64,000 bases of DNA. Source: Escherichia phage vB_EcoM_G17. The stretch lies in the sequence record MK327931.1. The stretch is one strand, 5' to 3'. The position numbers and the translations under genes are program-made. Below are positions 8,239 to 18,059 of the stretch, piece after piece. How positions within the stretch are numbered: position 1 is the first letter of the stretch; each line of letters begins with the position of its first letter. A model generated the notes under the pieces. The model saw nothing but the letters and a program-made list of their open reading frames with translations. It made no database searches and was not told the DNA's origin.

Positions 8239-8610
8239 TTATGACATACGCTTATTATGAATGGAATTATGAATGGATTTTAAATAATTATATAATTTTA
8301 TCAATCCACTACCAGTAGCTACAAACAGTAGTGCTGTTGGTATCATACATCCAAACATGGTTATTAATTCATGTATTTCCATACCATCACTATTTGGTCC
8401 CACATCAAATATAACAACCAAAACAACACCTAAAATGCTTAGACAATAATATCCCATAAAGACCATAAAAGTGATATATCCGGCACTTGATTTAATATTA
8501 CATAACATATTATACACTGGATTAATACAGAAGAAGTATAATAACCATACCAGTGTTCCAGTACTGAACATAATAATTGAAATAATGGAAAATATCTCAC
8601 GGTAACTCAT
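8239..8610 (-). CDS. small polytopic membrane protein
   Basis: 123 aa, several hydrophobic segments; first of tandem membrane-protein array. Confidence 0.6.
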   Translation of the reverse strand: MSYREIFSIISIIMFSTGTLVWLLYFFCINPVYNMLCNIKSSAGYITFMVFMGYYCLSILGVVLVVIFDVGPNSDGMEIHELITMFGCMIPTALLFVATGSGLIKLYNYLKSIHNSIHNKRMS

Positions 8611-8611
8611 A

Positions 8612-8974
8612 TTATTTCCTCATACCCAAACGTTGGTGGATTTCAGAGATCTTTATATACAATAGTACCACAAGGTGCAGTACTAAACAACATATAATTA
8701 CGGCTAATACCAATGAACATATCATAAGACCGAAGGTTATTGTATTCAAAGAGGATGTGAACAGTCCAATTATTAATACAATAAAACCAAAATTGAATAC
8801 TGTACCCAACACAGTATATGCTGGACTATATCTCTTTTGGATTACATCATATATATTTGATAATGGTCGCTTATGGAAGTACTTCCCAATGCACACGAAT
8901 GCATTCAGTGAGAAGATAAATGTATACGCCATTACTAGTAATTGACCAACGAAAGATAATTCTATCCCGTTCAT
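8612..8974 (-). CDS. small polytopic membrane protein
   Basis: Start taken at MNGIELSF (TAATG-type overlap with upstream stop); hydrophobic. Confidence 0.55.
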   Translation of the reverse strand: MNGIELSFVGQLLVMAYTFIFSLNAFVCIGKYFHKRPLSNIYDVIQKRYSPAYTVLGTVFNFGFIVLIIGLFTSSLNTITFGLMICSLVLAVIICCLVLHLVVLLYIKISEIHQRLGMRK

Positions 8975-8975
8975 A

Positions 8976-9344
8976 CTAACCTCGTTTACGTTTTTTAATT
9001 GTACTGTGCATCTTTTCGAAATAGGGAACCAAAACATATTGAACAGTTTGCCAGATAACCATTAGATTATGCACTGCACCACCAAGGATACCAAACACTA
9101 GAACAATAATTGCCATAATAGGATCACCGTCTACCATACCCCATTTAAAGATATGTAAAATCCAAGCAATGACTAGACAAAATAAACTAAGCCAATACGT
9201 AATGAAAAATCCGGCTTGTAATTCATAATCATCAGCAATTTCATCGTATACCGTTTCTAAAAATGATACACAAAAGAATTTACCAATTATAACCACAGTA
9301 CTAATAAACAGCATAGCAGTTAAGATAATAAGAGCAATTTCCAT
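8976..9344 (-). CDS. small polytopic membrane protein
   Basis: 122 aa; hydrophobic; basic C-terminal tail KKRKRG. Confidence 0.6.
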   Translation of the reverse strand: MEIALIILTAMLFISTVVIIGKFFCVSFLETVYDEIADDYELQAGFFITYWLSLFCLVIAWILHIFKWGMVDGDPIMAIIVLVFGILGGAVHNLMVIWQTVQYVLVPYFEKMHSTIKKRKRG

Positions 9345-9658
9345 TACATCCCTCGTTTACGCTTTTGATTGCGTCTAAATTCTGTTAGTCCACGGCTAAT
9401 CGGCGGCATCAGACTACATAAAAAAGTAACAGTTGTTGGTAGTAACATCAAGTCAATCATTGCTGTATTATCAGGTGGATCACATACCAAATAATACAAA
9501 CAAGTAATACTAATAATGGTTGACCCAATAAAAGGAATACAAAATTCTTTTATCTGTTTTTCAACATAATCAAACATCTTCAGTACAAATAAAAATCCAA
9601 CCCAACACATAATGAAATAGAATGAATACAACGTGTAAATCAATGTTACGATATCCAT
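9344..9658 (-). CDS. small polytopic membrane protein
   Basis: 104 aa; hydrophobic; basic tail RRNQKRKRGM like neighbour. Confidence 0.6.
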   Translation of the reverse strand: MDIVTLIYTLYSFYFIMCWVGFLFVLKMFDYVEKQIKEFCIPFIGSTIISITCLYYLVCDPPDNTAMIDLMLLPTTVTFLCSLMPPISRGLTEFRRNQKRKRGM

Positions 9659-9996
9659 TAGTACCTCGCATCAGGAACTTTAGCACGTAATTTATGAACG
9701 ACTGGGAACAACAACAAACTTACATATGCAATAGTTGAACCCCAATAGAATACTAATACAATTGGTTCACCATTAGAACGGAAACCTCTACTAATCATTG
9801 AGTAGTGAATAATAGGCATAATCATCGCCATACCAAACCATGCGTGTAATTTTAATTGCAGCATGTTATCAGCGATGAATACTGAAATTGGTCGTTTGAA
9901 GAACCACATCAGAAAGTAGAATCCAGCACTAATAATATAGTACAAAGTACTAACTTTCATATACCACGGCAGTAAATCAATAAAGTACTCCATCAT
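9658..9996 (-). CDS. small polytopic membrane protein (paralogue family)
   Basis: 112 aa; WFFKRP after first TM; tail KVPDARY. Confidence 0.6.
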   Translation of the reverse strand: MMEYFIDLLPWYMKVSTLYYIISAGFYFLMWFFKRPISVFIADNMLQLKLHAWFGMAMIMPIIHYSMISRGFRSNGEPIVLVFYWGSTIAYVSLLLFPVVHKLRAKVPDARY

Positions 9997-10340
9997 TCCT
10001 CCGGTATCTTATTTCGAAGTTCAATCATAACACAACAAATTTTAATGGTCAATATAAAAGTTAAACATATCATCCCAAGTGTGCCGTAAACTGCGGAAAA
10101 AGCTGGTAGTACCTTTCCTGTGAGTGTTGCTACAATACATGCAATCAATGTTGATGCAAACAACGATTGATTAATGACAGAATTCATAAAATCTTCACCA
10201 TTACGTTTATAGAATTGTCGTTTAAAATACCATCCTAGAAACATAACTACCCAAAATGATACATAAGTTGTTAGAATAATCCCTGCAAGTGAATGTGCAA
10301 CTGGACTACTCCTTAAAAACTCAAGATAAGCTTCAAACAT
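9993..10340 (-). CDS. small polytopic membrane protein (paralogue family)
   Basis: 115 aa; WYFKRQ after first TM; tail RNKIPEE. Confidence 0.6.
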   Translation of the reverse strand: MFEAYLEFLRSSPVAHSLAGIILTTYVSFWVVMFLGWYFKRQFYKRNGEDFMNSVINQSLFASTLIACIVATLTGKVLPAFSAVYGTLGMICLTFILTIKICCVMIELRNKIPEE

Positions 10341-16378: not shown

Positions 16379-16379
16379 C

Positions 16380-16775
16380 TCAAAATAAATTCATTTCATG
16401 TGCGTATTGTGGTTCAAGATAAGATAAGTTTTTGAAACTGTCTTTCAATTCTGCATCATCTACGTACACAGTACCAGGTACATTCCCCATAGTGAAGCCA
16501 ACCCAAACAGTCATGTTTCCAGTTCCTAAGCGGGGCATTGATAGCGTCCCGTCAGGTGAAACATCAAACGCTACACTAAAGTCATCCGTTACAACTTCCG
16601 AACCATTTTCCAGAATAATACAACCACGTTCTTTAAGCTTCTGAATGTGGATAGAAGCCTCTACTGCACGTTTAAAGTTATAGTAAGACTCTTTATCCTC
16701 AAACATAGATTGTTTAACCAGACGCTTGTTTAGCTCGGTTACTTTGTACATTTGTCGCATTACTTCAACTCCCAC
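16380..16775 (-). CDS. hypothetical protein (131 aa)
   Basis: ORF in array. Confidence 0.55.
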   Translation of the reverse strand: MGVEVMRQMYKVTELNKRLVKQSMFEDKESYYNFKRAVEASIHIQKLKERGCIILENGSEVVTDDFSVAFDVSPDGTLSMPRLGTGNMTVWVGFTMGNVPGTVYVDDAELKDSFKNLSYLEPQYAHEMNLF

Positions 16776-17014
16776 AGTTGTAGAATTTCATAAGAGCCTG
16801 GTGGTGCTGGATTGATAATCTCAGGGTATTCAGTACTGTTAGGATTACCACCAGCATTGAACTCAGCAAGTAATAATTCGAGTTCATTCCTATCATGTAC
16901 AACAAACACGCAATATCCAGTTCCTTCTTCAAGAACTGTAGTTGACCCCGCACAATCCCATACGGTATCAATACATAATAATTCTTTAGTGTTTTTATTA
17001 CGCAACGCAAACAT
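16760..17014 (-). CDS. hypothetical protein (84 aa)
   Basis: Balanced composition; preferred over overlapping 16765..17178 frame. Confidence 0.5.
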   Translation of the reverse strand: MFALRNKNTKELLCIDTVWDCAGSTTVLEEGTGYCVFVVHDRNELELLLAEFNAGGNPNSTEYPEIINPAPPGSYEILQLWELK

Positions 17015-17023
17015 ATTTGTCTC

Positions 17024-17392
17024 CTATCGATTCGGCATATTCTTTCGTAGTCGCAAGAGAAATTCAACCACTGACCATGTTGTAATGAAGGCAATATAAG
17101 TTGCAAGGAATCCAGTAAGAATAAATGCAACCAGCGTACTACCATTTGGGGAATCAGTTTTAATGCCGATGACACCATCGGCTACAGTGAAACATGTAGC
17201 CATTAATGTGTAACCTACGTACAACACAAAGAAAAACTCATTCTCCATTGAAGGATAGAAACGGTTAAACACTTTATAAAATTTAAAGTACAGTAGGATT
17301 ATACCAACAAAGGCATAGAATGTAAACAGTGTTGTTATAATATATGAGATTAGGTTCAAATTATACATATCAACGCTCCGGTAGATTATCAC
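17024..17392 (-). CDS. small polytopic membrane protein (paralogue family, tail NMPNR)
   Basis: Hydrophobic; paralogue of next two ORFs; start may be MYNLNL at 17368. Confidence 0.6.
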   Translation of the reverse strand: MIIYRSVDMYNLNLISYIITTLFTFYAFVGIILLYFKFYKVFNRFYPSMENEFFFVLYVGYTLMATCFTVADGVIGIKTDSPNGSTLVAFILTGFLATYIAFITTWSVVEFLLRLRKNMPNR

Positions 17393-17717
17393 GTAATGTT
17401 TTAATTCGATGATACATTTTCATACCAATATTACCAAAGATACCATATCCAAGTACTAAAATGTATGCGATAAGCATAGTAATAATTACTATAGTACCAA
17501 AACTATAATGTACACTACTGATACCCATTGTAGTTTCAACGATTATTTGAGAAACTGAAAGAATCAAAAGTACAACTACAATTGGATGATTTGGGTACAT
17601 TCGGTTGAACAACGTTTTGTACTTAAAGAAGCACAGTACTCCACCAAATAAGAAGTAAACAATGTAAATGCAAGCAACAGCATAGGCAAACATGTTAGTG
17701 TAATAAATCATTACCAA
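17370..17717 (-). CDS. small polytopic membrane protein (paralogue family, tail NLPER)
   Basis: 115 aa; hydrophobic. Confidence 0.6.
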   Translation of the reverse strand: MVMIYYTNMFAYAVACIYIVYFLFGGVLCFFKYKTLFNRMYPNHPIVVVLLILSVSQIIVETTMGISSVHYSFGTIVIITMLIAYILVLGYGIFGNIGMKMYHRIKTLRDNLPER

Positions 17718-17720
17718 TCC

Positions 17721-18059
17721 TTACTTTTCAGGGATATTAGAACGCCATATATCAATGCGATGAACTAGTCCAAAGAACAACCATACTGGAACGGCAGCTA
17801 TCATAACAACAAATGAAAACCCAGTCAAGACCGATACCAGATTTAATTCATCAGTACTATACCCACATATCAGTACTTCTAATATTCCCCACGTACATGC
17901 ACAAAACATCAAGAATGAAATTGGGGCATCATAGTAGATACGTTCATATAAAGTAGTGTATCGGAAGAATGCAATAATGTAGCAAAACATATAATACACC
18001 CAAACCAAAGATACTACATAAAATGATACTTTGTTTATTAATTCAAAATATTGTTCCAT
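17721..18059 (-). CDS. small polytopic membrane protein (paralogue family, tail NIPEK)
   Basis: 112 aa; hydrophobic. Confidence 0.6.
   Translation of the reverse strand: MEQYFELINKVSFYVVSLVWVYYMFCYIIAFFRYTTLYERIYYDAPISFLMFCACTWGILEVLICGYSTDELNLVSVLTGFSFVVMIAAVPVWLFFGLVHRIDIWRSNIPEK

Follow-up and report, generated by a model that had tools for sequence, protein, structure and literature searches.

In this work we analysed 11 small genes on the minus strand of a 64,000-nucleotide (nt) stretch of Escherichia phage vB_EcoM_G17 (MK327931.1; the whole stretch is called the window hereafter), where they lie in two tandem arrays of eight (8239..11019) and three (17024..18059) members. We are highly confident of the descriptive account, in which these genes represent an ancient, lineage-specific family of three-helix membrane proteins, kept under purifying selection and organized in two tight, coupled units. 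As for their function, we tentatively propose that the proteins form an early battery of individually dispensable inner-membrane blockers, which would act via the hairpin formed by transmembrane (TM) helices 2 and 3 in superinfection exclusion or in counter-defence.

Positions 8000..18400 of the window are 100% identical to Escherichia phage Sharanji (OR545507.1), whose gene names are used here; a window position equals the Sharanji record position minus 47,777. Sharanji is an Asteriusvirus with a genome of 350,079 bp, a RaK2/121Q/PBECO4-like jumbo myovirus without a phage nucleus. The preliminary description of this DNA took T4-type phages as its point of comparison; the present phage does carry T4-like core genes but is not T4-type proper, and T4 has no counterpart of the arrays. 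The arrangement in arrays of eight and three was correctly described, as all 11 open reading frames (ORFs) were found there on the minus strand. They are Sharanji gp120–gp127 and gp140–gp142, and all are labelled 'hypothetical protein' in the record. The size range initially given, 104–141 amino acids (aa), needs correction. In the record gp121 has 141 aa (8612..9037), with a 21-codon N-terminal extension and a 62-nt overlap with gp122. Its start is most likely the ATG at 8974, because a GAGG Shine–Dalgarno is present there, the upstream stop is 1 nt away and the orthologue in phage ph0011 is annotated as 120 aa. With gp121 trimmed to 120 aa, the family ranges from 104 to 123 aa.

Relatedness and anatomy of the 11 proteins

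The preliminary description took the 11 ORFs for paralogues, and this is borne out: pairwise alignment is significant for some pairs and profile methods join them all. By BLAST most E-values among the 11 are insignificant and only three pairs are significant. The adjacent genes at 10340 and 10678, rightly singled out as clear duplicates, share 47% identity (E 2e-34), and the other two pairs are 17370/17721 (E 1e-9) and 17024/17370 (E 2e-5). Smith–Waterman z-scores against shuffled sequences agree with pairwise BLAST. Since most pairs do not match significantly, and since the G+C content of the region is only about 32–34%, one may ask whether these are unrelated hydrophobic frames, or decaying duplicates, produced by an A+T-rich composition.

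The profile comparisons give a different picture. Orthologues were taken from the Escherichia phages UE-S1, ph0011, A4 and Turkey5, from the Klebsiella phage Muenster (Alcyoneusvirus) and from the Erwinia phage pEa_SNUABM_44 (Eneladusvirus; pEa44), and phmmer clustering placed the 11 Sharanji genes in nine orthogroups (OGs). OG0, OG1, OG5, OG7, OG8 and OG9 match one another at 84–99% in hhalign and constitute subfamily A, while OG2, OG3, OG4, OG6 and OG10, with mutual values of 47–84%, constitute subfamily B. Cross links between orthogroups of A and B reach 65–72%. These values are far above the controls, as 110 comparisons with reversed sequences give at most 14% (95th percentile 1.8%) and comparisons with other small membrane proteins of the window at most 4%. 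When each subfamily is merged, A and B match at 95.1% (E 3e-8) along 89 columns that begin at TM1 and extend to the C-terminus, against 1.5–2.2% for reversed controls. The two subfamilies also detect each other when the whole Sharanji genome, reassembled from seven pieces (1256 ORFs of at least 50 aa), is scanned with hidden Markov models (HMMs): directly below the members of its own group, the subfamily-A HMM places the four subfamily-B genes (E 3e-6 to 5e-3), and that of subfamily B places five genes of subfamily A (E 1e-6 to 0.013). With an HMM of the whole family, exactly 11 ORFs of the genome have E-values of 1e-16 or lower, the next ORF being at 0.05, and all copies are confined to this one 10-kb stretch. 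By these profile criteria the 11 genes are one superfamily with two subfamilies. They are, array 1 first:

gp127, 10678..11019, minus strand: 113 aa; subfamily A, OG0; first gene of array 1; 47% identical to gp126
gp126, 10340..10678, minus strand: 112 aa; subfamily A, OG0; recent duplicate of gp127; start codon and upstream stop share 1 nt
gp125, 9993..10340, minus strand: 115 aa; subfamily A, OG7; WYFKR motif and NKIPEE tail; modelled with AlphaFold2
gp124, 9658..9993, minus strand: 111 aa; subfamily A, OG5; WFFKR motif and KVPDARY tail
gp123, 9344..9658, minus strand: 104 aa; subfamily B, OG2; KRKRGM tail
gp122, 8976..9344, minus strand: 122 aa; subfamily B, OG4
gp121, 8612..8974, minus strand: 120 aa from the probable ATG at 8974; subfamily B, OG6
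gp120, 8239..8610, minus strand: 123 aa; subfamily B, OG3; last member of array 1
gp142, 17721..18059, minus strand: 112 aa; subfamily A, OG1; FFRY motif and NIPEK tail
gp141, 17370..17711, minus strand: 113 aa; subfamily A, OG1; FFKY motif and NLPER tail
gp140, 17024..17368, minus strand: 114 aa; subfamily A, OG8; YFKF motif and NMPNR tail

All 11 proteins have about 100–130 aa, three TM helices, a (W/Y)(Y/F)F(K/R) motif after TM1 and an R/H-x-(K/N/R)-h tail, and the genes of array 1 lie in tandem downstream of a NrdC.10-like ATPase gene. The ORFs at 25769, 26596, 36246, 36668, 13803 and 15270 were ruled out as further members by hhalign values of at most 4%. The ORF at 41936..42310 gives a borderline match to subfamily A (E 0.007), but it has a single TM helix and is missed by the family HMM. 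Among the rejected ORFs, the one at 13803..13997 encodes 64 aa with two hydrophobic segments, is unannotated in Sharanji and does not rise above the hhalign controls; at the equivalent place UE-S1 has a 64-aa gene, UES1_192.

Hydropathy shows three hydrophobic segments in each protein, where three to four had been described; four were not seen in any. Although the protein at 9658 (gp124) has a weaker hydropathy, its alignment with the others covers all three segments, and the note '3 TMDs, N-out, C-in' is attached to its orthologue in Muenster. Of the sequence motifs first noticed, the (W/Y)(Y/F)FK motif and a basic tail are indeed family-wide, while the exact tail N-h-P-(E/N)-(R/K) is confined to one subfamily. 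Column conservation, computed on 63 sequences from six phages, is highest for the R/H of the tail (100%), which is followed by (K/N/R)-(I/L/F)-(P/K/R) and basic residues, and for the F of (W/Y)(Y/F)F(K/R), directly after TM1 (97%). A Y eight residues beyond this F is conserved at 65% and a G at the start of loop 2 at 61%. The predicted topology is N-out/C-in in the inner membrane, because K and R are enriched in loop 1 and in the tail while D and E are enriched in the N-terminus and in loop 2, as expected from the positive-inside rule. The TMHMM notes of the Muenster annotators agree with this orientation for five of eight orthologues. An AlphaFold2 model of gp125, built from the family alignment, shows three long helices preceded by a short N-terminal one (mean pLDDT 72).

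Members of one orthogroup differ most in the TM2-loop2-TM3 hairpin: in distant comparisons its identity is 24–30%, against 36% for the N-terminus and 41–49% for TM1, loop 1 and the tail, and in close comparisons it is 79–81%, against 86–90% for the other segments.

Synteny, selection and cassette-like exchange of the arrays

The gene order of array 1, OG0-OG7-OG5-OG2-OG4-OG6-OG3, is the same in Sharanji, UE-S1, ph0011, A4 and Turkey5 and is largely kept in Muenster. In the Escherichia, Klebsiella and Erwinia jumbo phages the array is always directly downstream of a gene for an AAA/P-loop ATPase homologous to T4 NrdC.10. The loci that were fetched contain 11 copies in Sharanji, UE-S1, ph0011 and Turkey5, eight in A4, eight in Muenster and five in pEa44, with lineage-specific duplications in OG0, OG2 and OG9; two Muenster genes that were outside the HMM training set were recovered by the HMMs. 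We show, by comparison of these loci, that the family arose by tandem duplication before the split of the Escherichia, Klebsiella and Erwinia RaK2-like jumbo phages. The genes that border the two arrays in Sharanji are the following:

gp128, 11085..11855, minus strand: NrdC.10-like AAA/P-loop ATPase, directly upstream of array 1 in every relative examined
gp143, 18062..18343, minus strand: non-membrane (soluble) protein of 93 aa that heads the array-2 unit; at the same place in phage Turkey5 (54% identity)

Among Sharanji, UE-S1 and ph0011, the ratio of non-synonymous to synonymous substitution rates (dN/dS) of the family genes is 0.03–0.47, comparable to that of denV, and the genes are therefore functional and under purifying selection. 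An origin of the ORFs in base composition is not compatible with these values, with the occurrence of collinear orthologues in metagenomes as well as in three genera of phages, with the Shine–Dalgarno site that precedes every family gene, or with the profile links and reciprocal HMM detection described above. That explanation, which we regard as having practically no chance of being right, is already refuted by the data on conservation and selection.

The conserved order raises the possibility of a hetero-oligomeric inner-membrane assembly, a channel or a scaffold, which might work with the upstream ATPase. The order of seven orthogroups is constant between Sharanji, A4 and Turkey5, and Muenster shares part of it; the ATPase gene is directly ahead of the array in all five lineages, and in A4, Muenster and pEa44 the small genes come after it with no intergenic gap, the next gene being itself a family member in pEa44. 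Translational coupling of the genes favours balanced co-expression, and all members diverge together between phage lineages. Such an assembly nevertheless appears improbable, as copies vary from 5 to 11 with single orthogroups lost or duplicated, and as recombination has acted separately on the ATPase and on the array (the ATPase of Sharanji shares 97% identity with that of A4 and 59% with those of UE-S1 and ph0011, and the array behaves in the opposite way). In addition, this ATPase family is present in more than 1300 phage records, T4 included, without such arrays, and the Sharanji array has its own promoter-like site.

The independent behaviour of ATPase and array is clearest in two comparisons. 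Between Sharanji and A4 the flanking proteins (denV, gp134–137 and the ATPase) are 94–98% identical, whereas the family proteins are only 25–45% identical in 10 cases out of 11 and 67% in the eleventh. Between Sharanji and UE-S1 or ph0011 it is the array that is close, at 73–98% identity, and the ATPase that is distant, as noted above. At the DNA level, the block of high identity between Sharanji and A4 stops at 11083, which is the ATPase stop codon, and high identity returns at 16378, which is a consensus promoter; copies of a terminator/promoter repeat, described in the next section, cross-match at the edges of the Sharanji/A4 mosaic blocks. Judged from these breakpoints, whole arrays behave as cassettes that are swapped between related phages.

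Other genes of the locus also differ between relatives. A conserved lipoprotein gene follows the membrane array in three genera (40–58% identity, lipobox ...S(A/G)C): A4_235 (12465..13016 of locus L005), Muenster_562 (12104..12691 of locus L006) and pEa44_00573 (11780..12415 of locus L007). The Sharanji genome has no homologue of it, and the unrelated gp119 (window 7535..8194) occupies that place; Turkey5 has a gp119 homologue (32% identity) at the same position. A 372-aa gene at 11924..13042, between two copies of the terminator/promoter repeat, is absent in UE-S1, ph0011, A4 and Turkey5; within the fetched loci it is related only to a Muenster 'putative endonuclease' (33% identity), and it probably represents the insertion of a mobile or homing endonuclease gene.

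The family was found in RaK2-like giant phages only. By tblastn, relatives turned up in jumbo phages of Escherichia, Salmonella, Klebsiella and Erwinia and nowhere else. A search for homologous proteins returned 21 proteins, and an exhaustive HMM search, run against 1.84 billion representative proteins, returned only 19 clusters, all full-length (89–127 aa), with no more distant related family visible. One divergent match lies on a 1.5-kb metagenome contig, where it adjoins another member. The PHROGs database matches the proteins to entries of their own family (phrog_27618, 26405, 33258, 27396, 19046, 19454, 19285 and 16874; E 1e-51 to 1e-70) and treats them as at least eight small, unrelated groups of unknown function; the Muenster orthologues, CPT_Muenster_554-561, are labelled 'putative membrane protein'. 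Pfam, NCBIfam and PADLOC gave nothing above noise, the best matches, PycTM (E 0.029) and Wzy (E 0.016), being far below cut-offs. In a fold search with the AlphaFold2 model (pLDDT 72), BFVD returned only the model's own orthologue and Foldseek against the PDB returned nothing.

Several candidate relatives were discarded. A likeness to three-helix transporters of the SemiSWEET/PQ-loop type was rejected: the sole PDB sequence match is 4x5m (Escherichia coli SemiSWEET), its E-value, 0.22, is not significant, and no MtN3/PQ-loop Pfam family is matched. The annotation of ph0011 carries the notes 'Phi92_gp231/233/234', which pointed to phi92 as a source of counterparts to the ATPase and membrane genes, but phi92 gp231–234 are different small proteins. 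T4 NrdC.7, a 'predicted membrane protein' downstream of T4 NrdC.10, is unrelated (hhalign 0.5%).

The preliminary description called 11 paralogues unusual. The 11 copies are real, but the statement loses force because the same genome holds other arrays of paralogues and because the layout of eight and three genes is inherited, relatives carrying from 5 to 11 copies. Thirteen tandem paralogues with RCC1-like repeats abut array 1 on the plus strand (window 1..7283, record 40.8–55 kb), and in other phage records they are labelled 'DNA condensation protein' or 'HERC1'. At least 17 consecutive genes of 66–96 aa, falling into three BLAST clusters, occupy positions 9,786..15,486 of the Sharanji record. 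Two clusters of five genes each (118–187 aa) lie at the right end of the record, at 343,069..349,957, and one member of the first of them is at record position 113, at the left end. Tandem gene families are thus a general trait of the Sharanji genome.

Gene packing, predicted promoters and distance from the probable endolysin gene

The genes of array 1 are joined by a 1-nt stop/start overlap (TAATG or TGATG) at five junctions and separated by a 1-nt gap at two. In most family genes (8600..10690 and 17360..17720) the Shine–Dalgarno of the following gene sits within the last codons, which are then read in two ways: CCG GAG GAA (CCGGAGGA) encodes P-E-E and provides GGAGGA, CGA GGG encodes R-G and provides GAGG, and GCGAGG encodes A-R. 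The tail motif is therefore partly under a dual constraint, but it is also a feature of the protein, because it is present in gp142 and gp140, where the Shine–Dalgarno follows the stop. On this spacing the arrays are tightly packed, translationally coupled units. The regulatory elements predicted around them are:

11049..11077, minus strand: TTGACA-17-TACTAT, a sigma-70-like promoter site within the 65 nt that separate array 1 from the ATPase gene; a consensus match only
18380..18408, minus strand: TTGACA-17-TATTCT, a sigma-70-like promoter site that precedes gp143 and array 2; a consensus match
11884..11913, minus strand: putative terminator/promoter cassette, AAAGGGTTGACTTCGGTCAGCCCTTTTTGCTATAAT, upstream of gp128
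8210..8233, no strand assigned: 10-bp inverted repeat between gp120 and gp119, followed by a T-run on the plus strand only; its role is uncertain

The minus-strand block contains many near-consensus sigma-70 promoters throughout. The AAAGGGTTGACTTCGGTCAGCCCTTTTTGCTATAAT cassette, about 36 nt long, is repeated on the minus strand, with -35 sites at 11913, 13327, 14609, 19104, 21798, 21981 and 25223. It is built as a G+C hairpin with a T-run, the -35 box being in the stem, and a -10 box follows, which makes it a combination of terminator and promoter. This build fits the concept of the 'promoter-early stem-loop' (PeSL), which comes from T4-like phages (PMC4122927). A second class of promoter on the same strand, TTGAC(A/T)...CAGTACTGTATAATG, has an AGTACT palindrome immediately ahead of the -10 box, and its -35 sites are at 16378, 26996, 30958, 31306, 47823, 48283 and 48692. 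The array-1 site at 11077 resembles a weaker promoter of this class, and the sites from 47823 to 48692 seem to lie upstream of a tRNA-like sequence.

The T4-type late motif TATAAATA is depleted in the whole window, with three occurrences found and 14.4 expected from shuffled sequences, and the whole-window scan found none near the arrays. Neighbouring genes include denV and a gene for a T7 gp0.7-like kinase. From the sigma-70 and PeSL-like promoters, the depletion of TATAAATA and these neighbours, it is a reasonable inference that both units are transcribed early, by the host RNA polymerase, from sigma-70-type promoters.

The position and the promoters also bear on a role in lysis, since superinfection exclusion and lysis timing had both been suggested for the family, and both are plausible. 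For lysis control, the proteins would be holins, pinholins or antiholins needed by a predicted endolysin of the signal-arrest-release (SAR) type. Their architecture is that of class I holins such as lambda S105, with about 105–125 aa, three TM domains, a predicted N-out/C-in orientation and a short, positively charged cytoplasmic tail. In addition, RaK2-like endolysins have an N-terminal TM domain, as described for that of phage CBB, in a paper in which the word 'holin' does not occur (PMC5259590). In Sharanji, gp426 (record 263,024..263,983; locus L015), labelled 'hypothetical', combines a TM segment at its N-terminus with a LysM-like stretch and a likeness to the phage's lysozymes, and is probably the SAR-type endolysin described for CBB_187. 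The only small membrane protein encoded next to it is gp423, of 61 aa with a single TM segment.

The family nevertheless differs from class I holins in several respects. Its genes are away from endolysin and spanin genes: the endolysin-like gp426 is at 263 kb in the record and the arrays at 56–66 kb, about 200 kb apart, in a block of sigma-70-type promoters with no T4-type late motif beside them. The proteins have no dual-start motif, a set of 11 holins would be without precedent, and no similarity to holin profiles was detected in Pfam, PHROGs or NCBIfam at E-values up to 0.1–1. Early-type promoters and the distance from the endolysin gene argue against a lysis cassette, and we consider a role in lysis control very unlikely.

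Proposed action at the inner membrane

In the mechanism that we tentatively favour, a battery of blockers, the family proteins would be inserted into the inner membrane of the host at an early point of the long infection cycle. The parts that the members have in common, namely the conserved TM1, the juxtamembrane motif (W/Y)(Y/F)FK and the R/H-x-K-h tail, would act as a shared scaffold or as a topology signal, and the variable TM2-periplasmic loop-TM3 hairpin of each member would bind a different membrane-embedded target by helix–helix packing. The targets most likely to be involved would be either the DNA-entry machinery of superinfecting phages (superinfection exclusion) or membrane-disrupting host abortive-infection effectors or colicins. 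The arrays would pass whole between related phages, as cassettes. We favour this mechanism because copy number varies, because the cassettes diverge extremely between otherwise near-identical phages and because the variability sits in the hairpin; a battery is preferred to a fixed complex because copies range from 11 to 5, with lineage-specific duplications of OG0, OG2 and OG9. An array identity of 25–67% between flanks at 94–98% in the Sharanji/A4 comparison, the breakpoint at the ATPase stop codon and the variable hairpin together suggest an arms-race-like pattern.

Known proteins provide partial parallels. T4 Imm has two TM helices and T4 Sp has one. Like these and analogous superinfection exclusion (Sie) proteins, the family proteins are small, would reside in the inner membrane and are encoded among the accessory genes of a large virulent myovirus, in a part with putative early-type promoters, the host-type promoter-like sites at 11077 and 18408 and the surrounding sigma-70/PeSL cassettes being consensus matches only; a block at the inner membrane would also be common to both. 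Imm and Sp are, however, encoded by single genes, in contrast with the multigene three-helix family found here, and PHROG and Pfam scans revealed no similarity to Imm, Sp or RI, returning the family's own PHROGs and sub-threshold noise. Immunity proteins of the colicin E1 type have about 113 aa and three TM helices, and recognize a membrane-inserted effector by helix–helix contacts within the membrane. Size class and helix number are thus alike, and this mode of recognition would fit the hypervariable TM2–TM3 hairpin. The colicin proteins are plasmid-borne and not phage-borne, however, and no colicin immunity family of Pfam is matched.

Early expression of small membrane proteins could also serve host takeover, by inhibition of inner-membrane proteins of the host (divisome, transporters, proteases or respiratory complexes), for example causing filamentation. 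The early-type regulation and the adjoining gp0.7-like kinase gene agree with this idea, and division is known to be blocked by small membrane proteins of other phages, SPO1 gp56 being an example. Moreover, cells infected by Sharanji filament (PMC11895373). It is still an unlikely explanation: no member is tied to a specific host target, and the high conservation of host membrane proteins is a poor fit with the 25–45% identity of the arrays between phages of the same host species.

Several results weigh against the battery of blockers. Searches of PHROGs, Pfam, NCBIfam, PADLOC, PDB and folds gave no homology link to an exclusion, immunity or anti-defence protein. No gene-wide signal of positive selection is present among Sharanji, UE-S1 and ph0011, where dN/dS is below 0.5. 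No transcriptome of any RaK2-like phage was found in the literature, and 'early' here refers to the promoter consensus. The sharp divergence of the arrays between Sharanji and A4 could be the ordinary mosaic exchange of an accessory block, with no arms race, and the fixed order of seven orthogroups across genera would also fit the multi-subunit assembly discussed above.

The papers on Sharanji, CBB and Muenster and a 2026 review of jumbo phages contain nothing specific on these genes, the CBB paper listing 43 'conserved putative membrane proteins' without analysis (PMC5259590). The unity of the family, its collinear conservation and its cassette-like exchange are not described in these publications.

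In conclusion, at least eight orphan PHROGs are merged here into one family with its motifs, predicted topology, synteny and cassette-like exchange, in jumbo phages that form no nucleus, which are barely studied and in which most of the roughly 600 genes are unannotated. If the proteins have no part in exclusion or counter-defence, this is an ordinary accessory gene family. If they do, they would explain how a slow giant phage shields the membrane of its host from competitors or from host suicide systems, and would add to the very short list of characterized phage membrane proteins of exclusion and counter-defence. We also envisage, as a more speculative and rather unlikely extension of the blocker battery, a swappable 'membrane immunity island', in which each paralogue would be an intramembrane antidote to a different membrane threat (for instance colicins, abortive-infection effectors that form pores, or the channels through which superinfecting phages translocate their DNA), with a specificity set by the hairpin and with cassettes exchanged at PeSL-like repeats. 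Such an island, if real, would represent a new class of phage counter-defence and exclusion proteins that work purely by intramembrane helix–helix recognition.

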